The translations under genes and the position numbers were made by a program. From Scenedesmus sp. PABB004 (Eukaryota): a stretch of 64,000 bases of DNA. Every line of letters starts with the position of its first letter. Position 1 is the first letter of the stretch. The notes under the pieces are model-generated. The model was not told the DNA's origin and searched no databases. It saw only the letters and a program-made list of their open reading frames with translations. Positions 7,349 to 47,447 of this stretch are shown piece after piece. The stretch is from the NCBI GenBank assembly GCA_014905635.1, contig CM026547.1:2480001-2544000 (forward strand), written 5' to 3'.

Positions 7349-9751
7349 CGCCCGCGCCGCGCGGCCGCCACGCCTACGGCGGCACCGCCGGCGCGGGCGC
7401 GGGCGGCCTGTGGGCGCCGCTGCCGGGCGGCGGCGCCGGCGGCGGCGTGTCGCCGTACCACCTGGGCCAGCCCACCAACGTGGAGGACATCCTGCAGATG
7501 CTGCGCACGATGCCGCGCGGCAGCTCGGCCATCCCCGTCGTCGCCGACTCGCTGCGCTTCCTCGACAGCCGCGCGCTCGCGGCGCTGCTGAAGGAGCTCT
7601 CCAAGACGGGGCTGCGCGAGGTCGCGTTTGAGATCTTTGACTGGCTCCGCGCGCAGAGCGAGGCGGTGCACCCAGAGTACGCCGGCCTGCTCGACGTCTT
7701 CACATACACAACCATGATCGTGAGCCGCCGCCACGCGCGCGCGCGCGCGCGCGCCGCGCCACGCCGCGCCGCACAAGCAGGCACACGCGCGGCGCGCGCG
7801 GCGGCGAGCCCCGGCGCGCGCCCGCCGCCCACGCCCCGCCCGCGCGCGCCGTCGCCCGCCGTCGGCCGCGCCGCGCAGGCGCAGTGCACCAACCACATGC
7901 ACCTGCCGACCGCGCTGGAGCTGGTGAACGAGATGCGCGGCCGGCGCGTGCCGCTCAACACGCACACCTACAGCGCCATGCTCAACGTCTGCATCAAGGC
8001 GGGCGAGCTGGAGCTCGCGCTCGACGTCTTCAACGAGGCACGCAGCGTGCAGACGCGCAGACGCAGCCGCGCGCGCGCGGGCGGGCGGGGCAGGGAGGGC
8101 GCGGCGCGCGCGGCGCGGTCACGCGGCGCCGGCGTGGCGCGGCGCGCGCAGATGCTGGCAGAGGGCCTGCAGCCCAACCTGGTGACCTTCAACACGCTGC
8201 TCGAGGTCTACGCCAAGCGCGGCATGTGGCGCGAGGCCGTGGGCGTGCTGGACACGCTGGAGCAGCAGGTGCGCGCGCGACCGCGCGCCGCGCCGCGCCG
8301 GCGCGCCGGGCCCGGGCGCTCACGCGCCTCTGCGCCGCGCCGCCGCGCGGCGCAGCGCCTCGTCCCCGAGCCGCGCACGTTCAACATCGTAATGAACGCG
8401 TGCAACGCGGCGGGGCAGCACGCGAGCTGCATCGCGGTGCACGGCCGCATGGTCGGCGCTAAGGTGCCGCCCACGGTCGGGACCTACAACGCCGTCGTGC
8501 TGGCGCACTGCAAGTGAGCGGCGGCCGGGCGGCCGCGCCGCGCCGCGCGGCCGGGCGGCGGCCGGGGCCGGCCGCGCCCCTTGACCGCGCCCCCTGACCG
8601 CGCGGCCGCGCGGCCCCGCGCCCGCGCTTGCGCAGGCTGGAGCAGCCCTCGTCGGCGCAGGCGCTGTTCAGCGAGATGCCCCGCGCGGGCTGCATGCCCA
8701 CGCACACCACGTTCATCACGCTGCTCCAGAGTGCCGAGGCGCACGGCCAGGCGGCGGTCGCGGTGTCGCTGCTGGAGCAGATGTCGGCGCTGTCGCTGCG
8801 CCTCACGCCGCAGTGCTACGCCGCCGCGATCGGCGCGTGCGCGGCGGCGGGGCAGCTCGCGACCGCGCGGCGGCTGCTGGGCGACATGCTCGCGAGCAGC
8901 AAGGCGGGCATGGCCGCGCCGGCGCACATCATCATGCAGCTGCAGGACCGCTGCGCCGACTGGGTCGGCGCGCACCGCACGTACCAGAAGCTGCTCGCGT
9001 CGGGCGTGCGCCCCGACGCACAGACCACGGCGACGGCGATCGAGGCGCTCTGGGGCGCCGGCAGCGTCGCGAGCTGCCTGCTCGCGCTCGCCGCGTTTGA
9101 GGGCGCGTGCAAGGCGGGCGTGTTCCGGCTCGCCGTCGCGGTGCGCCCCGGCGACGCGACGGTGGAGTTCAGCCTGCCCGTGGCGGGGACGTGCATGGCG
9201 CTCATCGGCCTCTGGCGCCTGCTCGCCGAGCTGCGCGGCCGGCTGCTGCGCGACGGCCCCAAGATCCTGCGCGCCAGCGTCGTCGTGCTGCTCGGGGACG
9301 GCCAGGCGGCGGTGCCCAGCCTGCAGGCCGCCATGACGCAGGCGCGCGCGCGCGCGCGCCGCGCGGCGGCTCGGCGCGCGTGCTGCACACAAGCGCGCGC
9401 GCGCGGGCGCCTCGGCCCGCCCCCGCCCGACCCCGCACGCCCGCGCGCCCCGCAGTGGTGCGCCGTGCCAGGCGTGCCGTTTGAGCTTGAGGCGAGCGCC
9501 GCGGCCAACCAGGTCGCCCTCAGCGCGCCCGCGACGACCCTGGCGGCCTGGCTGCTGGGCGACGGCCTGCTGCTGATGTGCCCCGTCATGCCGCCGGCCG
9601 CTGAGCTGGAGGGCCTCGACGAGCTGCAGCTGCAGGACGCCGAGGCGGCCGCGCTCGCGGCCTGCAGGCAGCAGCTGGTGGAGGCCAAGGAGGCAGAGGC
9701 GGCGCTGCGCCGCGGCGCCAACGTGAGCGGCGGGCTGCCTGCGCGCTGGCA

Positions 9752-9802
<51 letters not shown>

Positions 9803-10728
9803 GACCCCCCCCCCCCCCTCCCCCACCGCCGCAGGCGCTGCCGCCCGCCTACCGCCAGGCGCGCGCCGCCCTGGCGCAGCAGCTGCAGGCGGCGTGCGCG
9901 GCCGCGCCGCAGGCTGCGCAGCTGCACGGCGCCGCCCTCACGCTGCTGGACGAGGCGGCGGCCGCGGGCCTGCTGGAGCCGCGGGACGGCGGCGCCGAGC
10001 AGCCCGTGCCGCAGGCCCAGCTGCTGGCTGCGTGCGTGGCCGTCTCCGCGCAGGCCACGGCCGGCGCGGCGGGCCCGGCGCTGCCCTCGGAGCAGGCGTT
10101 GGCGCAGCAGTTTGGCGTGGCGCCCGAGGAGCTGGCGAGCGCGGCGGGGCGCCTGCGCGAGGCGTGCGGCGCCGCTTGCGACGTGCCCGTGAGCGCCGCA
10201 GGCGTGCTCGAAACGTACGTGCAGGCCCTGCTGGCGGGGCAGCTCGACAGACAGGTGCGGCGCCGCGCGTGCACGCGTGCGCCCGGGCTGGCGGCGCTGC
10301 CGGCGTGCGCACGCCGCGGCCGCGGCCGCCGTTGCTGCGCCGGCGGGCGACGTGCCGCGCCGCCGCCGCCGCCGCCGCCGCAGGTGCCGGCGGCCAGCCT
10401 GGTTGGCGAGGCGCGCGCGCTCGCGGGTCACCTCCCCGACCACGCCGCCGCGCTGGAGCTGCCGCCCACCAGCCTGGCCGCGCTGCTGGTGGCGGCAGGG
10501 CGCAGCGCGCGGGGGCTGTACCCGGCGTGGCCCAAGGTGCTGGTCGTCCTCACCGGCATGGTCGCGCCCGCGGAGGGCGCGCAGCAGCTGCTGGACGCCT
10601 TGGTGCGCACGGCCGCGACGCTCGGCGACGCCACGGTCGCCTGCGGGGGCCCGGCCGGCGCCGCCTTCACCAGCTCGATCCTGGGCGGCGCCGGGCTGGG
10701 CGCCGTGGCGCTGGGCGGCAGCGTCTGA
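6943..10728 (+). CDS. Pentatricopeptide-repeat protein with C-terminal cyclin-like fold (PPR-cyclin type)
   Basis: Tandem PPR motifs (DVFTYTTMI, NTHTYSAMLNVC, PNLVTFNTLLEVYAKRG, PEPRTFNIVMNAC). The C-terminus has a cyclin-box-like pattern (ALTLLD, QLLAACVAVS, PPTSLAALLVAAGR, PAWPKVLVVLTG). Confidence 0.85.
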
Positions 10729-12469
10729 CTGCGGGAACCGCGCGTGGTTGGGCTGCGTGGGCTGTGTCAGGTGTCAGGGCAAAGGCCTGGGTGTTCTTCC
10801 GAGTGATGCGACGCGGGACGGTCTCGCTCGCTGTGTGGCAGTCAGCGGGGGAACGTGCGCGTGGGCCCAGGCTGAGGCGGTCGCGCTCCCATGTGCTGCT
10901 GGCATGCGGTGCTCGGCGCGCGCCTGCTGCCCGCTCAAGCCCCCGAGGCAAGTGCAGTCAGTCGCACACCTGGGGGCCCTGGCGAGGTCGAGGGCTTCCA
11001 ATGCCTATATGTTTGCTTTGTTTTGCTTTGTGCCGGGGAGTTGGGTCACGGAGCGCCCCGCGACCTCGCCACCGCGGTCGCGCGCGGCATGCAGGCGGGC
11101 TGCCGGCGGCGGTTGGCGGTGACGCCACCGCGCACGAATTGCCAGGGCTCTGCAGCTGCACGTTTGCTTTTGCAGCGCATTTGTGAACGCCGCAGTCCAC
11201 ACCTCCGCTGTCGGGCGGCGAGCAGCGATTCTTTCCTGTGCACTTGTGCTGCGCGCTGACGCGCGCGCGCCGCGCCCCGCGCGCGTTGGCTGTCCCTCGC
11301 AAATGCTGCCCATCCATGCTGGCGCGGGGCGCGAGCCTGCCCCCGATGGCGGCGCGGCGCCGCGCCCCCACCGCCGCGCGAACTGGCGGCCAGCACGGAA
11401 CCTCTGCTCGGGCGCCCGCTAGCCGCCGGCAGGCGGTTGCCGAACCGGGCGGCTTCACGGGCGCCTCTGCGCCACTGCGGCCACCTGTGCGGAGCGGCGG
11501 CGGGGCGGCTCAGGCATGGCGCCAATTCTAATGCACCTCTGCGGCGGCCCCGCCGCCATGACGGGCGGCAAGCGCCCACGATCTGTCGCCCGCACAATGC
11601 GGGCGCGCCCAGCGGCTGTTCATTCATTCGCTGGCTTTCTGTGCCCTTGCTCGAACGGGGCGGCCGGCGGTCGCATGGGCTCTCTGGCTTGGGGCGCCCG
11701 GCTGCGCGCAGCCGAGGCAAGCACTGTCGGCGCGCCTGGCACTCGCTGCTCTCTGAGCGCCGCTTGGCTCTGCATGCCTTGCTCGCCAGCCATCGGCGCG
11801 AGCGCCCCGGGGCTCCCGGCCGCGCGCGCGCGTGGTGGGCGGTTGGCGGTGGTTGGATGGATGGTCAAGAAGTTGGGCGGCCCGGTTGCGTGCTTGCTTG
11901 CGCTGCTCTGCTCTGCTCCTGCCTCGGGTTGGTTGCGGCCGAAGCCCTCGGGCAGTGCCCTCACTCTACCGCTCAAAAGGGCCCGCCGCCGCGCGGTGCG
12001 AATGCGCTCGGTTGTGAGTTGGTGTCGCCCATAGCGGTACGATCTGTCCGGGCCGGCGCTGCTGTTGGTGTGCCCATGGAAAGCCAAAAAGAGCAGGGCG
12101 CGCCCTTCACCGCACACGGCGTGCGCCGTGTGCCGGTTTGTGCGTGGTGATGATGATGACGATGAAAGTGGGACAGCGGGGCAGTGGGAGACGGCGGGGG
12201 CGTCGGGGCAGAGAACAGGCCGGCGTCTGGGCTGCGCGGCGTGCCGCTGCCCAGGCGTCGGCCAGCAAACTGGCGTCGCCTCCAGGGGTGACATTGTTTG
12301 CTTCACCCCTGGCCCTGGATACGTCTACCCAATAAGCTCAAGAGCGGGGGGGGGGGGGGGGGAATCCACCCGGTCCCGCCCGCGGGCGGCGCGCGCGCGA
12401 ATTGCGGCGCTGTCGCGGGCGGGCGCCGCGGCGCCCTCGCGGCGCGGCGGGCGGGTGGTGGTGCTGACG

Positions 12470-12474
12470 TGTAA
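12470..12474 (+). promoter_or_regulatory. TGTAA polyadenylation signal, probably for the PPR-cyclin mRNA
   Basis: First + strand TGTAA I noticed after the stop at 10728. TGTAA is the established chlorophyte poly(A) signal. Confidence 0.45.
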
Positions 12475-12510
12475 GTGGGCTTGCAGCTCGAGCTGCATGC
12501 GGGCGTGAGC

Positions 12511-14459
12511 TCACGCCCGCATCCACGCCTCCAGGAACAGCGCGGCCCTTCCTGAGTGGTAGCTCGCCTTCCACCGGTTCCCCTTGCTGTCCTTGTCCGC
12601 ATCGCCCCACACTCTGCTCGTGCCGTCAGCCTCGACCTGCGCACGCGCGCGGCCGTGCTCGCGGGCGGCGGCGCCCCGCGCAGCGCGCGCGAGCGCCCCA
12701 CCGGCGCCGTCAGCAGCCCCCCTGCGCGCTGCCGCCGCCGCCGCGCCTGCCAGAGCATCTCGCCGGCGCCGCCCTGGTCGAGCAGGTGCGCGGACACGAA
12801 GCGAGCCGTCTGCGCCAGTCGCTCAAGGTGGCCGCCACTCCCCCCGCGGAGCTCGTGCAGCTTCCACAGCGCCAGCATCGACTCCGCCTGCACCCACCAC
12901 ACCTGCGACGGCGGCGCGCGGGCTGTCGGCCGGGCGCGCGCGCGCGCGCGCGCGCGCGCGCGCGCGCGCGCCGCACCTTGACCCTGCTGGTGGGGCCGCC
13001 CTCGGGCGTGCCCGCCTCGAACACGCCCCCGTGCACGGCGTCGTAGCCTGCGGCCAGCGCGGCCTCGCCGACCGCGAGCGCGGCGTCACGGCAGGCCATT
13101 GCCGCCGCGTCGTCCAGCGCGCCCACCGCCTGCAGGTGGTCGATCGTGTCCAGCAGCAGCCACGCCGCCTCGAGGTTGTGCCCTGCAGAGAGGGGGAAGG
13201 CACCAGCGGCGGGCACCAGCAGTCGGGCGAGCCTAGGCCGCGCGGGGGCCGCCGCGCGCGGCGGGCGCGGCTGGCTGGCGGCGCCGCCGGGTCGGCCGCG
13301 CCCACCGCACCGTAGCTGACGGTGCTGGCCGGGTCTGGCGCCCAGTGCCCCGGGGTCGGCGCGGGCAGGTAGGCCTCCAGCAGCAGGCCCCGCCGCCGGG
13401 CCAGGCGCGTGCAGAGGATGGTCACCACCTCGACCAGCCGCGCCAGCACCGCGGCGTCGCCCGTCGCGCGGTGCAGCGCCACGAGCGCCTCGGTGCCGTG
13501 CAGCAGGACGTTGAGCGTGCGCGGCAGCTCCGGCGCGGCGCCGCCCCGCGCGGCGGCGCGGCGCGGCGCGTCGGCCGGAAACGAGTTGCTCGGCAGCTCG
13601 TCCCAGCCGCCGGTGCTCGCGTTGTGCCAGGCCCGGTCGAGCGCGGTGAACGTGGCGAGCGCCAGCTCGGGCGCCTCGCGCGCGCCGAACGGGGCGGCCG
13701 CGTGCTGGGAGAGGGCGTAGATCGCAAACCACTGCCCGTAGAGCACCGTCGCCGGCGACACCACGCGCGCGCCGTCGCGCGTGACGTTCCACACGAACAG
13801 CCCCGTCCCGCGGTCGAGCATGTGTGCGATCATGAAGTCCGCCGCGCTGCACGCCATCGCCGCGCTGCTCGGCAGCGGCCCGCCGCGGTGCCGGCCGCCG
13901 CCGTGCGCCGGCGCCACCGGCGCCTCGGCGCGGCCCGCGCCGCCGCCGCGCGCGTCGCAGCGCGCGTGCCGCGGCGGCTCGTCGTGGCCGTGCAGCGCGT
14001 AGGTCGCAAAGGCCCACGCGTGCCGCGCCTGCTGCACGAGGCCCTTCTCCTCCGGCGGCGTCGGCGCGCCATCGAGCGACAGCGTTCCGCGGAAGCCGCC
14101 GAAGCGCGGCTCGTCCAGGCCGTGGCACGCCCAGAAGCCGTGCACGCTCTCCCGCAGCGCCGCCACGTCGCCGCGCACCTGCGGCGGCGGCGGCAGCGCG
14201 GGCGGTGGGATGGACCGGCGGACGGCCCGCCACGCGCGGCGCGTGCGCGTGTTGACCGCGGCCCGCCGCGCGCCCCCGCGCGCCGCGCGCGCGCCCGCAC
14301 CTGGGCCAACAGGTCAGCCTGCGTCTGCGGCTGCGCCTGCGGCTCGGACCCCGCCTGCTGCGCCTGCTGCGCCTGCGCGGCGCCGCTGGCCGGCGCCGCC
14401 GCCGCGAGCATCGCCGCCACCAGCAGCGCGAGCGCCCACGGCGGGATGCCCCGCGCCAT
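12511..14459 (-). CDS. Secreted AGE-family epimerase (cellobiose 2-epimerase / N-acylglucosamine 2-epimerase-like)
   Basis: Signal peptide MARGIPPWALALLVAAMLAAAAPASG, then GGFRGTL, KGLVQQARHAWAFA, LYGQWFAIYALS, TLNVLLHGTEAL, SYGHNLEAAWLL, KVWWVQAE and terminal WKASYHSGRA. Confidence 0.88.
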
Positions 14460-19803: not shown

Positions 19804-21875
19804 TCAGCCGGGGAGGTCGGGCAGGTCGTCGTCGCCGCCCGCCGCGGCCACCACCGCCGCGCGCGGCACTTCGCGCAGCAGGAAGTCGCCGCCACCGCCT
19901 GGCCGCCCGACGGCGCCGCCGCGCGGCTGCTGCTTGGCCGCCGCCGGCCGGCCGCGGGCGCCGGGCGTCGCCACGCCCGCTGGCCGCCTGGCTTGCGCGG
20001 GGCGCAGGTGCGTGACGTCCAGCGCCGCCGCCGCAGCGTCCTCCTTGGGCATGGTCAGCACCAGCCGCCCGCTCGCGGCAGAGCGCTGCGCAACGCTGCT
20101 GTCGGGCTTGACCTGCGGCGGCGCCGGCGGCACGCCCGCGCCGGCGTGGGCGCCGCCGCCGCCACCGCGCGGCCGCGCGGCGCGCGAGGGGGGCGCGCCG
20201 CACCTCGGCGGGCAGCACCAGCTGCAGCAGGCGCCCCTTGATCAGCAGGCGCGCGAGCCGCGGCTGCACGTCTGCCTGGATGAGGGACGAGTCCAGGAAC
20301 CTGCCCACGGCCACGCTCAGCACCAGCGCCGTGCTGCGCCCGCACCGCGCGTGCGGCAGGGCGGCGCGGCGGCGTTGCGCGGTGCACCTTCGCGCCGAGC
20401 CAGCACCCGGCGCGGAGCCCACTGCGCCGCGCGCCGCGCCGCGCCCGCGCGCCGGCCGCACCCGTCCTCCGACTCCTCCAGCGCGAACTCCCACTTGCCC
20501 TCGTTTCGCTGCATCACGCGCCCACCCTCGGGCAGCGGCGGGAACTCCTGCGCGCACGCACACGCACACGGCCGGCGGAGGCGTGGGGCCCGGCGCCGGC
20601 GGCCAGGCGGCGCGCGCGTGCCAGGCCGCACCTCGAGCCGCGGCGGCGCGGGCGCGGGCGCAAAGGGGTCCTTCTGCCCCGCGGCGCGCGCCGCCTCTGC
20701 CTCGCGGTTAGCCCTCTCCTGCGTGCGGCCGGTGGCGAGCAGGGCTCCCGCGTGGGCGGCGGGGCGCCGCCGGCGCTGACGCAGCCGCCGTGCCGCTGCC
20801 GCGCCGCGCCGCACCATCTCGCGGTGCTCCAGGATGCGCGTCGCCGCGCACCACGGCCGCCGCAGCTCGCCCGCGTCGTCGACGTAGCCCGTCTCGGGCA
20901 CGTCCGCGTCCTCCAGCGCGCCGTCGTCCTCCACGCCCGCCGCCGCCGCGACGTCGACGCCCTCGGCCGCGAGCTCGGCCGCCAGCGCCGCCGCCAGCGC
21001 CGGCAGCGCCTGCCGCGCGGCGATGCGCTCCGACACCTTGATGGCCTGCCCGTCCTGCGCGCGCGGGGGGCGTGGCGGTGGACGGGTGGGCTCAGTGTCG
21101 CGCGCGCCGTCGCGTGCCGCGAGCCGCCGCGCGCCGCGAGCCGTCCCGCGCGCGGTGGGCCGCGCCGCGGCGCGCACCAGCTTTGTGAGCTGCGGCAGCG
21201 TGGCCACGACGTACTGCCGGTAGCCGTGCCAGTCGGTGCAGGGGTTGCCGGTGAGGAACAGCTCGCGCAGGGCGTGGTTGGCCGACAGGCTGGCCACGCT
21301 CAGCAGGCCGGCCTTGGGTATGAAGTTGAGCGTGAGGTCGAGCTTGGACAGCGACTCGCAGCGCTGCAGGTTCTGGAGCTTCGTCACGTTGTTCACCGCC
21401 AGGTTGAGGTACTGCAGCTCCTGAACGCACAGCAGCGCCGGCGCCGGCAGCCGCGGCGGCGGCGGCGGTCATCCCGTGCGGGCGCGCGGAGCCGGCGCGC
21501 GGGAAGCTGGCCGCCGCCGCCGGCGCGCCCGCCGCGCGGCCGCGCGCCTTGAGCTTGTGCAGGTTTTGGATCTTGGCGATGAGGTTGTTCTGCAGGTACA
21601 GGATGCGCAGGCGCGGGCAGAGGTGGCCGAGCAGCTCGATGCGCTCGATGCTCTGCTGGTGCAGCGCGACCTCCTCGAGCGTCGACAGCATGAACTCGTT
21701 GTGCTCAGCGCGCTGTGCCGCGGCGCGGCGCGGGATAGGGTCGTCCGGCGGCCCCTCTGGCGCCGCGGGCCGGCGGGCCGGACGCGCTGGCGGCGGCGCC
21801 GCGCGCGAGAGCAGCGAGAGCAGCGCCGGCGCGCCGCCTCGCCTTGCGGATCATCTGCTCGCTGATGCGCCCCAT
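19804..21875 (-). CDS. LRRC6: Dynein axonemal assembly factor 11 (LRRC6/TilB/MOT47)
   Basis: [37 protein letters not shown]..., [72 protein letters not shown] and [10 protein letters not shown]. Confidence 0.95.
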
Positions 21876-23616: not shown

Positions 23617-26008
23617 TCAGGCGGTCAGCGGCTCCCGCGTCTCGGGGTCGAGCGTCGCGCCGGGCGCGCCGGTGCCGACGTCAATCTCGTTGCCAAACGC
23701 GCCCGCGCCGCCGCAGCCGGCGTCAATAAACTCCAGGCGCGCCGCCGCGTCGGGCGTCATCAGGTCGGCCCAGCTGCCGCGCAGCGCGCGCACGACCGAG
23801 AGCCACGCGCCCTGCACCCAGCCTGCGCCCAGCCGCCGGCGGCGGCGGCTGGTGAGGGCGCGCGGGCGGCCACGCGCGCGCCCCGCGCCGCAGGCCCCCC
23901 AGTGCTGCCGCCCCCTCAACAAGCACACCCACCTGTGTACTTGAGGCCCCATGCCTCGCCCACGAGCACGAGGCTTCGGTCGCCCGGCAGCGGCGCGGCC
24001 GCCCACGCCCCGACGCTCTCGGCCGTCGTGTTGTGCTTGGCGCCGGCAAAGGGCGCGAGGTAGTGCCAGCCGTCGCGCCAGACGTTGAACCAGTCGAGCG
24101 TTGGCTCGGGGATGGGCTCGTGCGGGAACATCGCGGAGAGCTGGCGCCGCACGGCGCGCCGCACGGCGGGCAGGCCGCCCGCCTCGTGCAGCGCCGCCCA
24201 CTGCGCGACGCAGACCAGGTCGGCGGCGTAGATGGGGCGGCTCGCGTTGCTCGCCCGGAAGTAGGGGTGCCCAGGGAACTCGCTGAAGATGGTGCAGCCC
24301 TCGTCGGTCTGGACCTGCGGCGCGGCCGGCGGCGGTGGCGCGCGCGCGAGCGTGTCGGCGCGCGCGCGCGCGCGGCTGGCTCGCGGCGGCGCGCGCAAGG
24401 CGTGTGCGCGGGGCTGGCGCCGCGCCTGCAGGTTCCAGTGCTCGTGCGCGATGTAGTCGTGCCAGAAGCGCCGCGGCCAGAACGCGTCGTACACGGCGAC
24501 GCTGATCGGGAGCACGTCGCCGACCACGGGGTGCGCCGCCAGCGCGGCGCCGACGTCGCCGCCGAGGCGGCGCACGTCGAGCGGGCCCGACGCAAACGCG
24601 AGGCGCTCCGCGGTGAACGCGCGCCCGCCCGCGGTCAGCGCGACGTAGCCGCGGCCCGCGGCGGCGCCGCCGGCGCCGCTGAAGCTCGACACGTTGGCGA
24701 GCGCCGAGGCGTTGGCGGGCGCCGAGGCGGCGGCGGGCGCCGAGGCGTTGGCGCGGTAGATGCAGGCGACCGGCTCGCCCGCAAAGAAGCGCACGCCGGC
24801 CGCCTCGCTGGCGTTGCGCAGGCGGGCCATGATCTCGGCCCAGCCGCCGTGCGGGATGAGCTCCCGCGCCGCGCGCTGGTTCTCCACCTGCGCGGCGGGC
24901 CCGGGCGCGCGGGGCGTGGGCGGCGGGCGGCGCGCGGCTGGCGCCGGGCGGCAGGCGGCGTGCGCGAGCAGCCAGCGCCGCGCGCGCCAGCCTGCCAGCC
25001 CGGCCAGCCGTCTGCTGCGCCCACCTTGAAGTGCTCGATGTAGGCGCAGACGTCGATCGGGACCTGGGCGGCGGCCGCGGCGCGGGCGGCGGCGGGGAGT
25101 CTCGGGGCGGGGCCTGACGCCAGGCCGCGCGGCCGGCGCGGCGCGCCCGCGCGGCGCGCGCCTCGAGGTCGGCCGGCTCCACGATGCCCGCGGCGAGCAG
25201 CGCGACCGCCTCTGAGCTGCCCAGCGCGGCCTCGAGGTACTCGCGCAGCGTGGCAAACTCGCCGCACCGCGTCGCCGGGTGCGGCGCGACGGTCTGGTTG
25301 GTGAGCGGGTTGACGGCGGTGGCCGCGAGCAGGGCAAAGGCCTGCAGGCGGTCGTCGATGTCGTCGACGTCGCCGCCCGCGGGGTTGACGTCAAAGACCG
25401 CGCCGTCGACCAGGAAGCCGGAGAGGTCGCGCCGCACCCAGCGCCCGCGCGCGCGCACGATGAAGTCATCGCGGCTCGTGTCGGAACTGACGTTGACCAG
25501 GTGCGCCAGGCAGCGCAGCTGCGCGGCGGGCCCGGGGCGGGCCCGGGGGCGGCCCGGCGCCGCGCTGTGCGGCGCGACGCGGCGCGCGCGGGCTGGTGCC
25601 GCCCCGCGCGGCGCGGCGTGGTGCCCGCCGCACCTCGTGCTGGCTCATCTCGATGCGCGCCGCGGCGGTGCCGACGCGTATCGGCTCCGCGCCGGGCGCG
25701 CCGGGCGCCGTCACGACCTGGAGCTTGCCGCCGAAGAAGGGCCGCGCCTCGACGACGCAGAGCGCGCCGCCGAGGTGCCGCGCGAGCCAGGCCGTCAGCA
25801 GGCCCCCCGCGCCGCCGCCCACGACCAGCACGCGGCAGGCCGTCGCGCCGGCGAGCGCCGCCGCCGGCGGCGCGGCGGGGCAGGGCGGCGGCGGCGCGCG
25901 CTGCGCCGGCGCGGCCTCGATCTGCTCCGCCGGCGTGGGCGACGCGCGCGGCGGCGGGACCGCCGCGGCGAGCGCCAGGGCGCAGAGGAGCAGCACCAGG
26001 CGCGCCAT
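23617..26008 (-). CDS. Secreted FAD-dependent (flavin amine oxidase family) oxidoreductase
   Basis: Signal peptide MARLVLLLCALALAAAV, Rossmann motif VLVVGGGAGGLLTA...VVEARPFFGGKL, IPHGGWAEIM, and C-terminal LVLVGEAWG..GWVQGAWLS. Confidence 0.85.
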
Positions 26009-26342: not shown

Positions 26343-28270
26343 ATGGCAGCGATGCACCAGCAGCGCCGCGCCGGCTGCGCGGCGTCGCCCGCCGCCGCGC
26401 GGGCGCGCGCCCCGGCAAGCCTTGCGCCTCCTCTCGGCTGCGCCAGGCGCTGACGCCGCTTCGGGCGGAGGCGCACCCGGACGGCCGCCGCGCGAGGTGG
26501 GCAGCAGCGAGCGGCGGTTGGCGGCGCGGCTGCGCGCCCGCTGTGCTGCCGCTCCTCCGACCCGCCGCCGCCGCCCCCCCCCCCCGCCTCCAGGTACCTC
26601 ACCATCACCAGCAGCGGCTACGGCGCGCCGGCGCCGGCCAACAACGGCGACGCGCGCATCAAGGTCGTGGGCGTCGGCGGTGGCGGCGGCAACGCGCTCA
26701 ACCGCATGCTCCAGACCGGGCTGCAGGCGCGGCGGCGCGCGCGCGCGGCGGCGGCCCGCCCGGCCGCGTGCGGGGCCGCGACCGCCGCTGACGCCAGCGC
26801 CCCGGGGCCGCGCGCGCAGGGCGTCGAGTATTGGGCGATCAACACGGACGCGCAGGCGCTCGGGCACCACCCCTGCCCCAACCGCATGATCATCGGCAGC
26901 GAGGTCACGCGCGGCCTCGGCTGCGGCGGCGACCCCGCCATGGGGCGCGCCGCGGCGCTGGAGAGCGAGGACGGCATCCGGCAGGTGGTCTCTGGCGCAG
27001 ACCTGCTCTTTGTCACCGCCGGCATGGGCGGCGGCACCGGCACGGGCGCGGCGCCGGTCGTCGCGCAGATCAGCAAGGACGCCGGCGTGCTCACCGTGGG
27101 CGTGGTCACGTACCCGTTCAGCTTTGAGGGCCGCCGCCGCTGCAGCCAGGCGATCAAGGGCATCGAGGCGCTGCGCGGTGCGCGCCGCGCGCGCGCGTCG
27201 CCGCCGCCCCCGCGTGCGCGCCCGCCGCCCCTGCTCGCCCACGCCGCTGCCGCCGCTCGCTTGGCACTTGCCTCCGCGGTGCGCGGCCGCAGACTCTGTT
27301 GACAGCGTGATCGTCATCCCCAACGACAAGCTGCTCGAGGTCTCCGGCGAGGCGACGGCGCTGACCGACGGTGCGCGCGCCGTCGCCGCGGCGGCGCCGG
27401 CGCGGGCAGCCGGCTGCCCGCAGCCACCGCACGCGCGGCCGCTCTGCGCCGCTCTGCGCCGACGCCGCGCGCCCCGTTCCCCCGCGCCCCCTCCGGCCGC
27501 GCCGCCAGCGTTTGCGCTCGCGGACGACGTGCTGCGCCAGGGCGTGCAGGGCATCAGCGACATCATCACCGTGCCGGGGCTCATCAACGTCGACTTCGCA
27601 GACATCCGAACCATCCTCACCAACTCCGGCACCGCCATGCTCGGCGTCGGCTGCGCGAGCGGCCCGTCGCGCGCGGAGCAGGCGGCCCTGGCCGCCGTGA
27701 GCGCGCCGCTCATCCAGCAGAGCGTGGAGCGCGCGACAGGTCCGCGCGCGCGGGGCCGCCGGGGCGGGGGGGGGGGGGGGGCGCCCAGCGGGCCGGCCAG
27801 CCCGCCCCGGCGCGGCCTGGCGTCACCCGCGCCACCCGCCGTCGCGCGCCGCGCACAAAACGCCAGGCATCGTGTTCAACATCACCGGCGGGCGGGACAT
27901 GACGCTGAGCGAGGTCAACCGCGTTAGCCAGGTCGTCACGGGCCTGGCCGACCCCGCCGCAAACATCATCTTCGGCGCCGTCGTCGACGACAGCTTCGCC
28001 GGCGAGCTCGCCGTGACTATCGTTGCGACAGGGTTCAGTCAGAGCGTGGAGGAGGAGCTGTTCGGCGCGGCCGACGCGGGCGCCAAGCGCCGCGGCGGCG
28101 CGCGCGTCCGCGCCGGCGCAGCGGCCGCGGCTGCGCCGGCGGCGGCGCCCGCGCCCGCGCCGGCCGGCGACTACGACGACGAGCCGCCCGCGGCGGCGGC
28201 GTGGGGCCGGCAGCCCCGCGCGCAGGAGGCGCCGCGCAAGAGCAACTTCTTCGGCCGGAACCTGTTCTAA
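26343..28270 (+). CDS. ftsZ1: Plastid division protein FtsZ (FtsZ1 type)
   Basis: IKVVGVGGGGGNA, GVEYWAINTDAQAL, tubulin signature AGMGGGTGTGAAP, PFSFEGRRR, GLINVDFAD and NIIFGAVVD. It has a transit peptide and lacks the FtsZ2 C-terminal core motif. Confidence 0.95.
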
Positions 28271-28604: not shown

Positions 28605-30207
28605 TCACACCGCCGAGTCGGCGAGCGCGGCCGCCTCGTCCGACCACTGCGACGACACGTTGGACGTCTGCCCCTCGAGCCCCGCTGCGCCGTCGAGCTC
28701 GGCGCCCGAGCACTGCGTCAGCAGCGCGGCGGCGCCGAGGTTCCACGCCACGAGGCCGCCGCTCGTCGCGGCGACGGCGAGGGACCAGGTGTAGGGCGAG
28801 AAAAACTCCTCCGGCGCCGCCTCCTCCTCATACACAAAGCGCAGCTCCGGCAGCGCCTTGAGCCGGTCGCCGCGCCAGCCCGCCGCAAAGCCCTGCACCA
28901 GCTCCAGCACGCGCGCCACGCTCCAGTCGGCCTGGCCCTCGGGCGCGGCGGCGCCGCCGCCGCCGCCGGGGCCCGCGCTGACGGCGTCGAGGCGGGCATT
29001 GAAGTAGGCGATGACCGCCTCCAGGTTGTCCACCAGCTCCGCGATGCCCGCCTGCCCCCGCAGCGCGGCAAAGACGTCCTGCTTGTGCAGCAGCGCGTAG
29101 ACGAGCTCCGGGTTGCGCCCCAGGTTGAGGCAGAGCGCGACGTTGACCACGTCCAGCAGGATGCGCAGGAAGTCGCCCAGCACCTGGCGCGGGGGTGGTG
29201 GGCGCGCGTGTGCGTGTGTGCGTGTGTGCGTGTGTGCGTGTGTGTGTGTGTGATGGGGGGAGGGAGGAGGCGGGCGGCAAGCGGGTGCGCGCGCGCAGCC
29301 GCGCGCGCCCTGCGGCCGGCCGCGCACCTGGATGTCCTGCGGCGGCGTCGACAGGCCGCCCGCGTGCGCCGCCTGGCTGAGCTTCAGCCAGCGCCGCGCC
29401 AGCAGCGCCGTCAGGCCGACGAGGCGCTGCGCCGCGTGGCTGTGCAGCCCGCTGACCTGCGCGGCGCAGCGGCGGCGGCGGCGGGGCTCGGGCGCGTGCG
29501 GCGGCGCGGTGGGCTCGCCGCGCGCGCGTGCGTCGCACCTGCGGCGCCAGGTTGGCCAGCGCGGCCAGCGTATTGGTGGGCAGGAAGAGGTCCTGCAGCT
29601 GGCCAACGTTCTGGTGCGCCGTCCTGCGAGCGCGGGTCCGCGAGTCGGCGCGGCGGCGCTGGCGCGGTGCGGCGCTGCGGCGCCGCCGCGGCCGCCGCGG
29701 CCCCGGCCGCCAGCCGCACCGCAGCAGCACCACGAACACGAGGCTGCCCAGGGTGATGCGGCTGAGCTGGCGCTCCTTGTACCAGCTCACGCCGCCAGGC
29801 AGCACGACCTTGTGGATGTTGTGGCTGAACGACGTGTCCTGGCTCAGGATGAGCACGATGATCTGATGACGGCCAGGCGCATAGGCCAGCGGGGCGGCGG
29901 GCAGCGGGGCGGCGTCGGAGCGGCGCGCGCGCGGGCGGGCGCGTGCCGCTGGCGCGGCCTCGCTCCCCGCGCGGGCAGGGCAGGGCAGCGGTGGCCCCGC
30001 GGCGGCGCGGCGCCGCCGCCGGCGAGGAGGCGCGCCTGCAGCATGTAGAGGTGGTTTGCGCGGCGCTTGCTGGCGCGGTAGAGCGCGGAGAGCACGGGCA
30101 GCAGCAGCGCCTCGGGGTCGCTGCGCACGAGCACATAGTCCTGGAAGCTGCGGCTGCCGTGCAGCAGCGTGTAGAGCAGCAGCGTCGACGCCTCGCCCTG
30201 GGGCCCT

Positions 30208-32381: not shown

Positions 32382-32608
32382 ATGGCGGGTCCGCCCGACG
32401 GCGAGCTGGAGGAGCTGGTGCGGGCCAACATCCAGGAGGTGCTGGCGGCGGTCGCCGCGGTCGCGCCGGCGGCGGAGCCCGCGGCGGCGAGGTCGGCGCG
32501 CGCGGCGCGGCCGGCCGCGCGCGGCGGCACCGCCGGCGGCGCCTGCGCCGCCCCCCTCACCGCCGCCGCCGCTGCCCCGGGCTCCAGCAGCAGGCAGCTG
32601 CAGGAACC

Positions 32609-32652
<44 letters not shown>

Positions 32653-33643
32653 CGCAGCAGCAGCCGGCAGGGGGCGGCGATGGCAGCGCACGCAGCGGCG
32701 GCGCGGACGCGCTGCTCGAGCTGCCGGCCGGCGCGGAGGCGCGGCTGCTGCGGGCACGCGTGCGCAGCCTGGAGGAGCAGCTGGCACTCGCCATGGCGCT
32801 TAACCAGGAGAAGGACGCGGAGCTGGTCGCGGCGCAGCGCCAGGCGCGCCTGGCGTCGCAGAAGGAGGCCGCCGGCGGGAAGCAGCACAAGGCGCTCGAG
32901 GCGCAGGCGCGTGCGCGCGCGGCGCCGCAGCCGGTGCACGCGCACGGGGCGCGCAGCGGCACAGGCCGGGCGCGACGCGCGACGTGCGACGCGCGACGCG
33001 CGCGCAGGTGGAGCGGCATAAGCGCGCCGCCGAGGCGGCGCGCCAGGCGCTGGCGGCCAAGGAGCAGCAGCTGAAGCAGCTCAGCCAGGACGCGGCCAAG
33101 GTCGACAAGGACAGGTGCGGGCGGGGCGGCCAGGGAGCGGCGGCCGGCGGCGGCACGGTGGGCGCGGCGCGGCGCGGCGTCGGAGCAGCCCGCGGGGGAC
33201 TCGCGCGCGCGCGCCCGCGTCACGCGCCGCAGGCACGCGGCCGAGGCGGAGACGCGCGCACGCGACGTGCGGCTGCAGCGCGCGGTGGAGGAGGTGGAGA
33301 AGTACAAGGCGCTGCTGCTGGAGGTCAAGTCGCGGGTGCGCCGCGCGCGTGCCCCCACGGCGCCGCGGGCAGCCCCCGGCGGCGGCGGGGCTGAGCGCCC
33401 ACGCCGCGGCCGCGGCGCGCGCCGCAGGGCGCGGAGGTGAAGGACGCGGCGCGCAGCGACCACGCGAGGGCGCTGGGCGAGGTGGAGCGGCTGGAGCGGC
33501 AGAAGGGCGAGCTGGTGGGCGTGCTGCGCAAGCAGGCCAAGCTCATCGACGTGCTGCGCCGCCAGCGCGCGCACCTCGAAGCCGCGCGGCTGCTGGCGTT
33601 CACGGAGGAGGAGTTCCTGCGAACCCTGGACACCGGGGCGTGA
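32382..33643 (+). CDS. TEX9: Testis-expressed protein 9-like coiled-coil protein
   Basis: [16 protein letters not shown] and C-terminal [35 protein letters not shown], which is characteristic of TEX9. Confidence 0.88.
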
Positions 33644-33977: not shown

Positions 33978-35096
33978 TCACATCGTGGCCATGAGCCGCG
34001 TGATGGTGAAGGCGATGGCGCTGAAAGTTCCCATGATGGCGATGGTGCTCTTGATGACGTCGTTCTTGGCCTTCTCCATGCCCGCGCGGATGTCGTTCAC
34101 CTCCTGCGCGCGCACACGCGGCGTCACACGCGCGGCGTCACAAGCGCTCGCGCCCGCTCCCGCGCTGCGCGGCGCGGGTGCCGCCGCGCTCGCCGCTGAG
34201 CGCCGGTGCGGCGCACCCGGTCCAGCTTGATCTCCAGCTCGACCGACTTGTCCCGCATCTGCTGCAGGTCGTCGCGCATGCGCCTGCCGCGGCGCGCGGC
34301 GAGCGAGTCTGCGCCGGAAGAGCGGCGCCCCGGCGCGCGCGCGCGCTGCCCGCGTGCCGCGCCGCGCCGCGCCGCCGCGGCCGCGCTCACCCCTTCTCGA
34401 GGTTGAGGTCGAGGCGCTGGCTGGCGGAGAGCTTGTCGATCTCGTGCCGCACCTCGCTGCGCATCTTGTCCAGGTAGTTCTGCTGCCGCTCCAGGTCCTT
34501 CTGCAGCGTCGCGAGGTGCATGTCCTGCTTCTGGATGAGCTCCGCCTTGAAGCCGCCGATGCGCGCGTCCTGCTCGAGCATGGCCTGCGGCGGCGGCGGC
34601 CGCCACGCCCAGGGTCAGGCCGCGCGCCGCCGGCGGCGCCGCTGCGCTCGGGGTCGGGCCGCGCGCCGGCGGCGCCGCCGCTGCGCCCGGGGCCGCCGCC
34701 GCACCTTCTCCAGCTCCACGCGCGCCGTGAACTTTTCCGACAGCCGCATGCGGTCCAGCACCACCTGCTCCGTGAGGTGCCGCGTCAGCTTCTCAGCCTG
34801 CTCGCGCGAGAGGCCGATCGACTCAAACTGCTTCGTCTGCGGCGGCGGTCGCGGCGCGCCGGCGTCGGCGCGCGCGCCGCAGCGCGCGCCCGCAGCGGCC
34901 GCTGCGGGCGCGCCGGGCGCCGCGCCTGCGCCAGCGTGTCGACCACCACGGTGCGCTCGATCGCCTCCTGCGTCGGGCCGGTCGCAAACGCGCGGCGCAG
35001 CAGCAGCGCCACGCACGGCGCCAGCGCGCCGGCGCCCGGCGCCTGCCCTGCTGCGGCGGCGACAGCGGCGGCGCCCGCTGCCCGCAGCAGGGCCAT
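33978..35096 (-). CDS. Mitochondrial CCDC90/MCUR1/FMP32 (DUF1640) family protein
   Basis: Mitochondrial presequence ending RRAFAT, VVDTLAQ..FESIGLSREQAE, EIDKLSASQRLDLNLEKGRMRD, and C-terminal TM after EKAKNDVIK. Confidence 0.9.
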
Positions 35097-38123: not shown

Positions 38124-39593
38124 TCAGCTGCTGTTGTCCTCGCTGCCGCTGCTGCTGCCGTAGCCGCCGATGAGGCCCATGAGGCCGCCCGCCCCGCCCG
38201 CGTCCGCCTTGGGCCGCTTGCTGCTCGCGTCGGGGCCGGCGCCGGCCGCCGCCGGCGGCGCCGCCGGCGCAGCCGCCGCCGGGCGCTTGCGCACCGCCAC
38301 CTTGATGGCCGGCCGCGCGGGCGCGGGCGCCGGCTTGGGCGCGGGCGCAGGCGCTGCTGCGCCCGCTGCGGCCGCCGCCGCGGCGCTGCTGCCGGGCCCG
38401 GGGCCAGCGCCGGCCGCGGCGTCGCCGTCGCTGTCCTCGTCCGAGTCCAGCCGCCGCATCACGGTGCTGCGCTGCGCCAGGAAGGCCTGCATCGCCTGCC
38501 GGTCCTCCTCCGACAGCTCGTCGTCCTCGTCGCCGCCAGCGCCGCCGCCAGCGCCGGCGCCGCCGGCCGCCGCGCCGCCGCCGCCGCCCTCGCCGCCGCC
38601 GCCCTCGCCGTCGCCCTCCTCGCCCTCCTCGCCCTCCTGCGCCGCGCCCTCGCGCACCAGCGCCGCCAGCGCCTGCTCGGTGGTGATGCCGGCATGCCTG
38701 CGGCGCGCCGCGGCGGCGGCGGCGGCGCCCGCGGCGCGCGGCCGTCGGCGGGCCGCGCCCCCTGCCCGCACGGCTGCACCCGTGCCCGCGCTCGCGCGCC
38801 GCGCCGCGCCGCCGCGCCCGCGCGCCCCTGGCGGTGTGTGGGTCCTCACCGCGCCTTGAGGCTGCGCATCTCGTCGAGGGCCTCCATGATGTCCATCTCG
38901 CGCTTGCTGTCCTTGGTGCGGTTCTCCAGCGCCTTCATCGCGTTGCCCCGCTCCTCCTCCTCCCGGCTGCGCACCGCCTCCGCCTTGAGCACGTCGGCCT
39001 GCGGCGCGCGCGGGGGGCGTCGCGCGTCTGCGCGCCGCGCAGACACGCGCGGCGGGGCCCGCGGCGGCGCCGGCGCGGCGGCGCCAGCGCGGCGGCGGCG
39101 CCCCGCTGCGCGCGCGCCTCGCGCCAGGGCTCGTAGTTCCTGTTGGCGCCCTCCTCCATGACGTAGTCGGAGGTCTTGGGGTCGGTGCGCATCGTGAACT
39201 CGGCCGCGCAGTTCTTGCAGCGGTAGTAGAAGCGAAAGATCTGCGCCGCGCCGTGCGCGCGACGGCAGCGTCGGCGCACGGCCGCGCGGCCGCCGCGCCG
39301 CGTGTGCCGCCGCCGCGCCGCGTGCGGGTGGCCGCCGCGCGCGCGTGCGCCGCGGCCGCCGCGGCGGGCGCGCGCGCCTGGATGCCGAGGTAGGTCTCGC
39401 CCACGATGTCCTCCTTGCGCGTGTTGAACTTGGTGCCCTTGTACATGAAGTTGCCGCACGTGCGGCAGCGCACGCTCATGGGCAGCATCATGCGCACCTT
39501 CATCTCATTGTTCTGCCCCCGCTTGCCCCGCGGCAGCTTCGCGGGGTCAAAGTCGGGCGGGTAGTACTTGTTGAGCACCTTGCGCTCGCCCAT
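38124..39593 (-). CDS. YJU2: Splicing factor YJU2 (CCDC94)
   Basis: [49 protein letters not shown] and [17 protein letters not shown]. Confidence 0.97.
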
Positions 39594-43683: not shown

Positions 43684-43898
43684 GGGCGGGGAGGAGGTGC
43701 GCGAGGCATTACGCGCATTACAGCTCGTTCTGCCCGCAGAACAGCCCGGTCGTCTCCCGCGCTGCGCATGCTCAGCCGCCCGCGCGGCGCCCGCGTCCGC
43801 AACGCTCGCCCGCGCCAACGCGACCAGGCCCGCCCCGCGCCGCGCAGCAGCAGCTGCGACCACAGAATCGCGCGCGCTCGCTGCGCCCGCCACGCGCC

Positions 43899-45316
43899 AT
43901 GGCGGCCGCCCTCACGCACTCCAGCGTCGCGGGATGCGCCGCGCAGACTTCCCGCACCGGCCGCAGGTGCAATCCGGCCCCCGCCGCGCGCGGAGCGGCC
44001 GCGCCTGCGCCGGCCTCACCCGCCGCGCGCCCCGCGCTCCCCGCAGGGCCGTGGCGCCGCGCCCGGCGCCCTTCAGCAGCAGCACCAGCAGCCCCAGCAG
44101 CTCCCGCAGCGTGCAGGTGCGCCGGCGTGCCGGCGGCGCGGCGGCGGCAGCGGTTGCGCGCCTCTGCTGCTGCCGCACGCCCAGCGGCGTGTGCCCCCCC
44201 TCACCCCCGCACGCGCGCAGGCGCACGCCAAGGGCAAGGGCAGCCGGCGCATGATGTCGCCGACGATGAGCCCCGGCCAGATGGTGCGCGCCGCGCGCGG
44301 GCCGAGCGCGCGGGCCTCGCCGGCCGAGCGCGGGCAGGGCGCGCGCTGCGAGCGGCGCGCGCGGCGGCGCGTGCCGAGCGCGCGCCGCGCGCGGCCGCCG
44401 CGCAGATGAAGCCGCCCGTGCCTGAGGTGGACCCGGACAACGAGGAGTTTTGCATCTTCATCCGCGCCACCTCGGGGGTGGGCACGCGCCGCGGCGGCGG
44501 CGGCGGGGCGGGGCGGGGCGGGGCCGCGGCGCAGCGGCAGCGCGGCAGCGCGGTGTGGCCACGCCTCCCCCTCACGGCGCTGCCGCTGCGCGCGCCGCGG
44601 CGCGCGCGCAGAACTACCAGAACTGGGTGTTTGTGTCGGTCGTCAAGGGCGGCAGCGCCGCCAACGCGCTGGTCAAGTCCCTGCAGACCGAGTGGGGCCG
44701 CAAGCTGTACGGCCGCACGCTCATCTCCAACATTGGCAACGCCGTCTACAAGGCGCGCCGCGCGCGCCCGCGGCGCAGGGCCGCCCGGCCGCGGGCGCCG
44801 GCGGCGGGGCGGGCGGCGCCTCTGGCGCGGCGCGCGCCCGCGCCGGCCGCGCGCTCACTCGCCCCCGCGCTCACTCGCCCGCGCGCCGTGCTGCGTGTTG
44901 CCGGCCGCAGGACCGCGACGTGATTGTGAAGAGCCTGAAGAACCAGATCAAGCAGAGCATCGCCAACAGCCAAATGGCGCCCGGCGCGCGCGTGATGGAG
45001 CCGCTGCTCAACCAGCCGACCAACAACTTTGAGTTTGCGTTCAAGATCAGGGTGCGCAGCAGCGGCGGCCCCGGCGGCGGCGGCGGCGGCAGCGGCAGCG
45101 CGGTCGCCGCCCGCAGCGCGCTGTCGCCGCGCCCGCGCCGGCCGCCCGACCGCCGGCCGCCGCGCGCAGGACAAGACGCGGCCGGGCGAGTTCCAGAAGG
45201 CGGAGGGCCTGACCATCATCCCCAAGGAGAGCGAGATCGTGGCGCTGCCGCTCGACAAGCTCCGGGCCTTCTTCTCGCCCGACAGCCTCGGCACGCTCCT
45301 CGGCGGCAGCAGCTGA
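43899..45316 (+). CDS. HHL1: HHL1-like thylakoid protein (PSII repair)
   Basis: Transit peptide, PEVDPDNEEFCIFIR, WVFVSVVKGGSAANALV...WGRKLYGRTLISNIGNAVYKD, FEFAFKI and PLDKLRAFF, resembling plant HHL1. Confidence 0.8.
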
Positions 45317-45454
45317 GTGGGCGCGCGGCGCCGCCACGGGGGCCCGGCGGGGTAATCTGCTCGTCTCGTGCGCTGAGCTGCGCTCGGGCCGGCCGACCGC
45401 GCGGCGCGGCGATCGGGGGCCGCGCGGGCGGGCGGCCGCGGCCGCGCCGGCACG

Positions 45455-47447
45455 TCACAGCTCCTTGCCCGCCGCACCCGCACCCGCCGCGCCGCCCGGC
45501 GCTGGCCGCGCCTGCAGCTGCTGCTGCCGCGTGTTGTTCCGCACCGCGACCCGCAGCCGCGGCCCGTCCACGCTGAGCGCGAGCGTGCAGCCCTCGCGCG
45601 CGCGGCACCCCGGCAGCGCCATCGCCTGCCGCAGCGGGCGCCCGACCTGGCGCGTGATGGCGGGGTCGATGACCTTCGCGCCGTCCAGGGGGTACGGCCC
45701 GCTGAAGTCGACCTGCGCCGCGGCGGCGGCGGCGGCGCGGCGGGGCTCAGGGCGCGGGGCACAAGGGCTTTGCGGCCGTCAGCGACAGCGGCGCCGCGGC
45801 GCGTGCAGCGCGCGGCACGCGCCTTGCCCGCGAGGAACGCCGGCACGTCGGGGCCCCAGGTCAGCGCGGCACGCGCGTGCTGCGCGGCGAGCAAGTCGGC
45901 GCGCTCGCGCAGCGACAGCTCCGCGAGCTGCGCCATGTGCCGGCGCTCGAGGGGCAGGAAGGGCAGGAAGGCATCGATGAGGCTCAGCAGCACCAGCGTG
46001 TCCTCGTAGCTCTCCCCGCACCCCGCGCGCCGCCACTGCTCAAACACGACGCCGCGCAGCAGCGCCTCCGCGCCCTCCGCCGTCACCTGCGCCGCCGCCG
46101 GCGCGCTCGGGGGCGGCGTGGCGCGCTTGCGCGCCGGCGCCCCGCCGGCCCCCCGCCGTGCGGGGCGCCGCCCGGCCCCCGGCGCGCACCTTGCGCCTGT
46201 CGCCCAGCTGGCTGAGCATCTCCTCCAGCTCCGCCATGCCCAGGTTGGACTCCAGCAGGATGACCGCCCTGCAGCGCGCCAGCGCGGCGGCAGCGCCGGC
46301 GGCTGGGCGGCGCGCCGCACGCGGCGCCCCGCGCCCTCCCGCCCCCGTGTCGGGCGCGCCTGTTGGTGGTGATGTTGGCGCGCTCGGGGTGCTGCAGCAG
46401 CTGGCGCACGAGGCCCCGCGCGGCGCAGTCCATCTTGTCATACTCCTCCACCACCAGCAGCGCCTCGGGGCTCGACCGCAGGTGCCCCACCACCTCGCCG
46501 CGCAGCGCGTCGAGCCGCCCCGCCGCCTCCGGCACCAGGTAGTCCAGGCCGTACACCACCTGGCGCGCGCGAGGGTGGCGCGCGGCGCGGTGGGCGGACG
46601 CCGGCCGGGCGGCGCACGGGGGCCCCGGGCGGCGGCGCGCGGGGGCCCCGGGCGGGCGCGCGCGGGCCGCGCCTTGTAGCCGCGGCACGCGGGGCCGGGG
46701 CAGTGCAGGCCGCGCGCGGGGCGGCGGCTGTAGAGCGCGCGCGCGAGCCAGAGGTGGCTGTAGGTCTTGCCCACGCCGGGCGGGCCGTGCACCGAGAGCA
46801 CGAGCGGCTTCTTGGGCCGCGGCTGTGAAAGGTGGTGGCACACCGCGTCGGTGAGCTGCCCCAGCGCCAGGTCCTGGCCCACCACCTCCGCCGGCAGCAC
46901 GCGCTCAACGTTGGCGCACGCCGTGTCGACAAAGTGCGCGCCGCCTGGCGCGGCGCGGCGCGGCGTCGACCGGCGGCCGCGCAGGCGGGCGGCGCGGGCG
47001 GGCGGCGGCCGCACCCGTCATGTAGAGCGCCACCATGCTGCCCAGCGCGACCACGCCCGCCGCCAGCAGCGACATCGCAGCGCCCCCGCATGCGGCGCGC
47101 GCTCCCGCCGCTGCCGCCGCCGCTGCCGCTGCCGCCGCTGCTGCTCCTGCTCCTCCTGCTCCTCCTGCACTTCCTGCTGCTCCTGCTGCTGCTGCTGCTG
47201 TCCCGTTGCCTGGTGGGCGATTTTTCGCAGCGGCCGTTCGAGTGCGCCGCTGCCGCTGCCGGTGCGCGATCGCTGCTGTCGGCGACGGGATCGCCGTGCG
47301 ACGCGCTTGAGATATCGGGAGCCGCTGTGCGCAGCGCGGCAGCGCGGGAGCGCTTGTCGCCGAGCGGCGGCGGTGCAGGCCGCTGCGCCCTCGAGCGAAC
47401 AGCTCCCCAGCCTGGGACCCCAGCCCAGCAGTTCTCGCCTCTGCCAT
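45455..47447 (-). CDS. Torsin-like AAA+ ATPase, membrane-anchored / ER-type (alternative start 47075)
   Basis: Hydrophobic LLAAGVVALGSMVALYM, EVVGQDLA, PRPKKPLVLSVHGPPGVGKT, LLVVEEYDKM, RAVILLESN, LIDAFLPFLPLERRHM, DGAK and C-terminal GKEL*. Confidence 0.85.

Follow-up and report, generated by a model that had tools for sequence, protein, structure and literature searches.

In human, mouse, fly, worm and Arabidopsis, GC-AG introns account for 0.4–0.9% of introns and are spliced by the major spliceosome, a closer consensus match at the other donor positions offsetting the mismatch with U1 at intron position +2 (PMC1557818, PMC2490688). Such U2-type introns of animals and plants switch between GT and GC from one orthologue to another (PMC1557818, PMC2490688). 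Much higher GC-AG fractions are known from algae: 39.6% in Aureococcus anophagefferens, 22.2% in Micromonas pusilla and 7.7% in Chlorella sp., with abundance following genomic GC (Iwata and Gotoh 2011, PMC3033335). In Aureococcus and in both Micromonas species, that study found the putative 5′ end of U1 to be the canonical AUACUUACCUG (PMC3033335). In Emiliania huxleyi ~56–60% of donors are GC, nine GC junctions having been confirmed by reverse transcription polymerase chain reaction (RT-PCR; Feldmesser et al. 2014, PMC4028052), and ~14–17% of pelagophyte introns are GC-AG (bioRxiv 10.1101/2024.10.30.620910). The present analysis concerns the GC-AG introns in a 64-kb stretch of the nuclear genome of the green alga Scenedesmus sp. 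PABB004 (contig CM026547.1, positions 2,480,001 to 2,544,000; "the window" is this whole stretch).

The genome is 39.8 Mb long, with 78.5% GC and 7,092 genes (table in PMC12571836). Throughout the window G+C is 77–82%, averaging 79%, and 16 to 23 of its ~88 introns, i.e. 18–26%, are GC-AG, a share that refers to this one stretch of 64 kb. The first-pass annotation, made from the letters alone, had estimated about one in six of 90–100 introns, which the census upholds. It also took ~1% as the normal level in eukaryotes. For model organisms this is right, but for GC-rich algae it is not, high fractions having been in print since 2011. With G+C well above 60% and GC-AG introns several-fold above 1–2%, the window falls in the class of GC-rich genomes with abundant GC-AG introns. 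The pattern is real, but of a type already described in other GC-rich algae at comparable frequency, and the abundance of GC-AG introns does not by itself demonstrate a new splicing mechanism.

Like Aureococcus, Micromonas and Chlorella, two of which are green algae, PABB004 combines high G+C with GC-AG introns far above 1%; unlike them it is a chlorophycean (Scenedesmaceae) and has 78.5% rather than 64–70% GC, its GC-AG fraction being that of a single 64-kb window (PMC3033335). Its likeness to E. huxleyi is that there, too, a GC-rich genome is given as the cause of the GC donors, acceptors remain AG and gene finders biased towards GT make wrong predictions; that species is, however, a haptophyte with 56–60% and RT-PCR proof, as against ~18–26%, from sequence alone, in PABB004 (PMC4028052). 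Pelagophytes have a similar fraction, which likewise is put down to high GC and comes from annotation-based prediction, but they are stramenopiles with few introns per gene (bioRxiv 10.1101/2024.10.30.620910). The U2-type GC-AG introns of animals and plants share with those described here a C at +2 that mismatches U1 and is compensated elsewhere in the donor (Sheth et al. 2006, PMC1557818; Churbanov et al. 2008, PMC2490688); they differ in abundance (0.4–0.9% vs roughly 20%) and in donor consensus (AG/GTAAGT vs the local AG/GYGCG; here and below a slash marks the exon–intron border). In the literature on Scenedesmus and PABB004, GC-AG use in this species was not found reported, and PMC12571836 makes no mention of introns or splice sites.

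The GC-AG introns and their borders

Sixteen GC-AG introns had been proposed in the first-pass annotation (Table 1). On the coding strand each of them follows an exonic AG, starts with GC and ends with AG, and the flanking frames fit. That nearly all read GCGCG is borne out by 14 of the 16, the exceptions being GCACG (8038) and GCGAG (21842, minus strand); G is present at +5 in every one. Three-base periodicity is strong across the window, as is typical for coding sequence with G/C-saturated third positions: ~96% of third codon positions are G or C and ~4% A or T (A, 1.7%), so that the A/T of exons sits at codon positions 1 and 2. Introns are richer still, with a median G+C of ~89% against the window average. 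The frame on each side of an intron could thus be read independently from the periodicity of third-position G/C (GC3) alone, and intron length agreed with the two GC3-derived frames in 16/16. Lengths are not multiples of three in 12, and in these a change of frame is required. The four in-frame introns are, by composition, not coding inserts, since they score as non-coding. With a coding model trained on exons and a non-coding model trained on GT introns only, the coding log-odds of all 16 are negative in all three phases, at −6 to −23 per 100 nucleotides (nt); the medians are −12.8 for confident GT introns and +21.6 for 116 exon windows.

Protein comparison supports the GC-AG introns of this window and places the borders of 12 of the 16 to the residue. 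Removal of the intron at 8038–8151 restores an exact 35-residue PPR repeat by Pfam PPR positions, and removal of that at 21421–21547 preserves the leucine-rich repeat period to within one residue (Pfam). In FtsZ, residues 35, 36 and 37 of 2vam_A are contiguous only when the 31 codons of 26727–26819 are taken out. In the amine-oxidase-like gene, aligned with 11 representative homologues of 32–49% identity, the 24315–24425 read-through forms a 37-residue insert absent from all 11, and without it the junction is gapless. A GT alternative for the second intron of that gene, 25064–25161, was rejected as it would remove 7 aligned residues. For YJU2 39241–39377 the Pfam alignments on both sides extend to the exon ends. 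All three torsin junctions are gapless against 11 homologues, two of them transcript-derived. A good-looking GT alternative within the torsin gene (46269–46320, GTGCGG, 52 nt) would add 13 residues found in no homologue.

Four junctions are less firmly placed. In PDB alignments with cellobiose 2-epimerases, the upstream exon of the epimerase-like gene is matched right up to its final residue, and the downstream exon can be positioned only to ~5 residues, which leaves the junction approximate. The PPR intron at 9342–9455 fits in its ends and frame and was recovered by the gene parse; this part of the protein gave no Pfam match, and its in-frame read-through no PDB match. The remaining two are the TEX9-like intron and that after the first exon of the LRRC6-like gene, whose 11 residues, joined to exon 2, presumably resemble the N-terminus of human LRRC6.

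The first-pass annotation had named the use of nearby GT donors as the finding that would overturn its claim. When only GT was allowed, the in-frame introns were read through, or poor donors were taken that drop or add 3 to 37 residues, so that conserved residues of YJU2, torsin and dymeclin, among others, were damaged; for 11 of the 16 junctions, homology alignments reject the best of these GT-only alternatives. Seven GT introns also pass the Pfam adjacency test (662–760, 1467–1614, 1796–1935, 20113–20203, 29184–29327, 29457–29538 and 29624–29719), so the method is not biased towards GC. The GC-spliced torsin model is also letter-for-letter the NCBI TOR1A of Scenedesmus sp. PABB004, and the GC-spliced HHL1 model is identical to its NCBI HHL1. 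Both public proteins retrieved for this organism, encoded on a 4.85-Mb contig, thus match, and the public annotation already uses these four GC donors.

For the census, both strands were parsed with position weights trained on 50 confident GT introns and applied equally to GT and GC. This parse gave 86 internal introns, 63 GT and 23 GC, and recovered 15 of the 16 proposed introns exactly, overlooking PPR 8038–8151. Three corrections were made: that intron was added, one FtsZ intron was changed from GC to GT, and a GT intron was regained in the CCDC90-like gene. The resulting ~88 introns comprise ~65 GT, the 16 proposed GC and 7 further GC calls from the parse alone. Among the 8 extra GC calls of the uncorrected parse, one was refuted (27731–27866 in FtsZ, where three FtsZ_C Pfam positions are lost and a GT donor at 27740 fits), two have an exonic AG and are unsupported, and five are without AG and are candidates only. 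An unweighted parse gave 85–90 introns.

Of the two GT introns so corrected, that of FtsZ (27740–27866, plus strand) has an apparently non-consensus donor, cag/GTCCGC, the GC donor chosen by the parse lying 9 nt upstream. That of the CCDC90-like gene (34280–34389, minus strand; ggg/GTGAGC...GGCAG) is visible in the sequence and was lost by the parse, which split the gene in two, because its donor GTGAGC carries an in-frame TGA.

Table 1. Proposed and candidate GC-AG introns of the window (log-odds are coding log-odds per 100 nt; a slash separates exon from intron, or adjacent Pfam positions)
Feature	Positions	Strand	Donor and observations
GC-AG intron, PPR gene	8038-8151	+	gag/GCACGC...CAG, 114 nt, in frame; log-odds -7.2
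Claimed GC-AG intron, PPR gene, C-terminal part	9342-9455	+	cag/GCGCGC, 114 nt, in frame; log-odds -20.2
GC-AG intron, N-acylglucosamine/cellobiose 2-epimerase-like gene	12637-12746	-	cag/GCGCGG; frame shift needed
GC-AG intron, LRRC6/DNAAF11-like gene	21421-21547	-	aag/GCGCGC; frame shift needed
Claimed GC-AG intron, LRRC6-like gene, after 11-codon first exon	21713-21842	-	aag/GCGAGG; ends and frame fit; log-odds -18.5
GC-AG intron, FAD amine-oxidase-like gene	24315-24425	-	cag/GCGCGG, in frame
GC-AG intron, FAD amine-oxidase-like gene	25064-25161	-	gag/GCGCGC; junction gapless in 11 homologues
GC-AG intron, plastid-type FtsZ gene	26727-26819	+	cag/GCGCGG, in frame; log-odds -13.3
GC-AG intron, dymeclin gene	29863-30035	-	cag/GCGCGC; Pfam Dymeclin positions 421/422 adjacent
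Claimed GC-AG intron, coiled-coil (TEX9-like) gene	32907-33007	+	cag/GCGCGT; ends, frame and composition fit
GC-AG intron, YJU2 gene	38999-39117	-	gag/GCGCGC; Pfam Saf4_Yju2 positions 105/106 by extrapolation
GC-AG intron, YJU2 gene	39241-39377	-	cag/GCGCGC; Pfam Saf4_Yju2 positions 64/65 exactly
GC-AG intron, HHL1 gene	44753-44910	+	aag/GCGCGC; gapless in 5 homologues, one transcript-derived
GC-AG intron, torsin gene	45713-45822	-	aag/GCGCGT; junction gapless
GC-AG intron, torsin gene, phase 2	46269-46359	-	cag/GCGCGC; junction gapless
GC-AG intron, torsin gene	46560-46672	-	aag/GCGCGG; junction gapless
Candidate 17th GC-AG intron, CCDC90-like gene	34837-34925	-	cag/GCGCGG; exonic AG; gene parse only, absent from first-pass list
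Candidate GC-AG intron, outside the range of the first-pass annotation	61796-61945	-	cag/GCGAGG; exonic AG; gene parse only

Exonic context of GC donors and their counterparts in relatives

What sets the GC donors apart is the exon in front of them. A strong reliance on exonic AG had been suggested as one basis for GC donor use, and the counts agree: AG precedes 16/16 GC donors and 26/61 GT donors (Fisher p = 2e-5). Fifteen of the 16 GC introns are in phase 0 and one is in phase 2, phase 0 being found in 32 of the 61 GT introns (p = 0.003). The bias to phase 0 arises because A makes up so little of the third codon position that phase 1 offers almost no A at −2. Where both features coincide, at phase-0 AG/ donors, there are 19 GT and 15 GC.

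Motif usage, counted on both strands with identical position weights for GT and GC, gives the same picture. AG/GCGCG serves as a donor at 15 of its 82 occurrences, GG/GCGCG at none of 235 and CG/GCGCG at 2 of 552, both of the latter being candidate calls only. The decoy motifs AG/GGGCG (0/21) and AG/CCGCG (0/76) are not used. GT donors do function after GG/ (12/39) and CG/ (6/51). In the portions of Iwata and Gotoh available to us (PMC3033335), a restriction to AG and phase 0 such as that in PABB004 is not described. The AG dependence is the compensation rule published for U2-type GC-AG introns, and new machinery is unnecessary to account for it.

Gene calls of relatives that run on into an unspliced intron reveal, through the first residue read, the likely state of the donor. 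At the torsin junction after "...GYK" (46560–46672), 15 of 46 relatives go on into the next exon, 10 are without the motif and 21 are unspliced. Twenty of the 21 read V (GTx) and one reads A (GCx). Two HHL1 relatives' gene calls likewise continue with V at the junction. From this read-through at the two junctions it follows that the intron position is old, with GT as the prevalent donor; the GC donor of Scenedesmus sp. PABB004 looks derived, to judge by read-through residues rather than DNA. The lone GCx relative (P0038) has an Ala/Arg-rich read-through like that of PABB004, and may be a second very GC-rich species sharing the torsin GC donor.

Probable drift under GC pressure and other explanations

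These introns are probably ordinary U2-dependent introns whose donors have drifted from GT to GC under extreme nuclear GC pressure. A T-to-C change at intron +2 would be accepted only if the other donor positions pair well, which is taken to require A at −2 and G at −1 in the exon, with G at +1, +3 and +5 of the intron. As tolerance would need a well-paired donor, GC donors would be found almost only behind codons ending in AG; with third positions so nearly devoid of A and T, an A at −2 would be available mainly in phase 0, hence the phase of nearly all the GC introns. Where the context is permissive, the two donors do occur almost equally often (15 GC, 19 GT). We infer the direction, GT to GC, GC-biased mutation or gene conversion as its cause, and the use of unmodified U1 and U6.

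The first-pass annotation had instead suggested a spliceosome co-adapted to extreme GC content. An altered U1 5′ end or U6 ACAGAGA box, base modifications, or proteins of the U1-C or Prp8 type would then accept C at +2. The near parity of GC and GT in permissive context is in its favour, as is the poor pairing of the usual donors, GTGCG and GCGCG, with canonical U1 at +4 and +6; base modification or U1 small nuclear ribonucleoprotein (snRNP) proteins were also left open by Iwata and Gotoh for GC-AG-rich algae (PMC3033335). Set against this, A. anophagefferens and M. pusilla have a canonical U1 5′ end at GC-AG fractions of 39.6% and 22.2% (PMC3033335), and an unmodified U1 would itself lead one to expect the strict requirement for exonic AG. 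These closest precedents argue against U1/U6 adaptation, and we consider it improbable here. That the spliceosome makes almost no distinction between U and C at +2 behind a terminal exonic AG is likewise an unlikely proposition. If true, it could mean changed U1 snRNP proteins, modification of small nuclear RNAs (snRNAs) or altered U6/Prp8 proofreading, beyond tolerated drift; third-position GC bias would then decide which intron phases can switch, and the species would be a natural system in which to separate +2 recognition from exonic pairing.

A more mundane possibility is that the borders are misplaced, many of the 16 being really in-frame coding inserts or introns of the GT-AG kind with a donor close by, and the true GC-AG level ~1–2%. 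Pairs of AG/GC...AG arise easily where GC makes up 22% of all dinucleotides, the parse itself made at least one false GC call (that in FtsZ), and GT alternatives are possible at 9312–9455 (GTGCCC), at 32934–33007 (GTGCAC, with 9 additional residues) and for the epimerase intron. The residues that GT-only alternatives would lose or gain, their rejection by homology at most junctions, and the agreement of the public annotation on the GC donors of both genes checked (torsin and HHL1) make this very unlikely as a general account. Errors of sequencing or assembly, with T misread as C at true GT donors, can practically be dismissed: sixteen within 64 kb, every one at +2 behind AG, are implausible, and the relative with A (GCx) at the torsin junction comes from a separate source. 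Minor-spliceosome (U12-type) introns include a few GC-AG examples in animals (PMC1557818), but those bear GCATCC at +1 to +6, a motif found in 0 of the 16 here (14 GCGCG, one GCACG, one GCGAG), and a U12-type origin is next to inconceivable.

Several points weigh against drift under GC pressure as a full account. GC content and GC-AG fraction are only weakly correlated, so that GC pressure alone is insufficient; the Micromonas pair behind this has 22% in M. pusilla and 2.7% in Micromonas RCC299 (PMC3033335). Excision of the GC introns is deduced from proteins only, and homology fixes all but 4 of the 16 junctions (PPR 9342–9455, LRRC6 21713–21842 and TEX9, with the epimerase approximate). Some bias attaches to the AG and phase-0 statistics, as the first-pass annotation may have spotted AG/GC cases only, and the position weights also reward AG, though equally for GT and GC. 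The unweighted parse cannot separate GC from decoys, picking CG 63, GC 51 and GG 41 times; it was therefore used solely for locating exons and counting introns. Even with weights decoys gain score (GC +277, CG +191, CC +152). GC adds the largest gain, and part of the decoy gains comes from mimicry of true GC sites three bases away.

Other genes of the window and wider meaning

The two unsupported calls with exonic AG are at the end of Table 1; for that of the CCDC90-like gene, homology support was not found in Pfam. The gene at 48430–51927 (minus strand), with FAST kinase-like (FAST_1) and DUF6832 matches, is one uninterrupted 1,166-codon exon, intron-less among intron-rich neighbours. At 53632–58359 (minus strand) is a Rit1-like gene (initiator tRNA phosphoribosyl transferase), in which the Pfam profile matches only the last 60 residues of a 777-codon "exon"; this has either long inserts or introns overlooked by the parse. 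The first exon of the TEX9-like coiled-coil gene (32382–32906, plus strand) encodes a run of ~20 glutamines. Rfam, run over both strands of the window, returned no family at or above its gathering score, and no transfer RNA, snRNA or small nucleolar RNA was detected. A brief all-against-all blastn of 84 introns gave no clear intron families of the introner type; matches were only ~80% identical and in several registers, as is expected of GC-rich low-complexity sequence.

Gene finders confined to GT would mis-model about one intron in five here and in similar very GC-rich algae. PABB004 adds a chlorophycean, with the highest GC of the series, to the organisms in which GC-AG introns are known to go with genomic GC, and a rule for which donors can switch is suggested, namely those behind an exonic AG and hence, under extreme GC3, mostly in phase 0.

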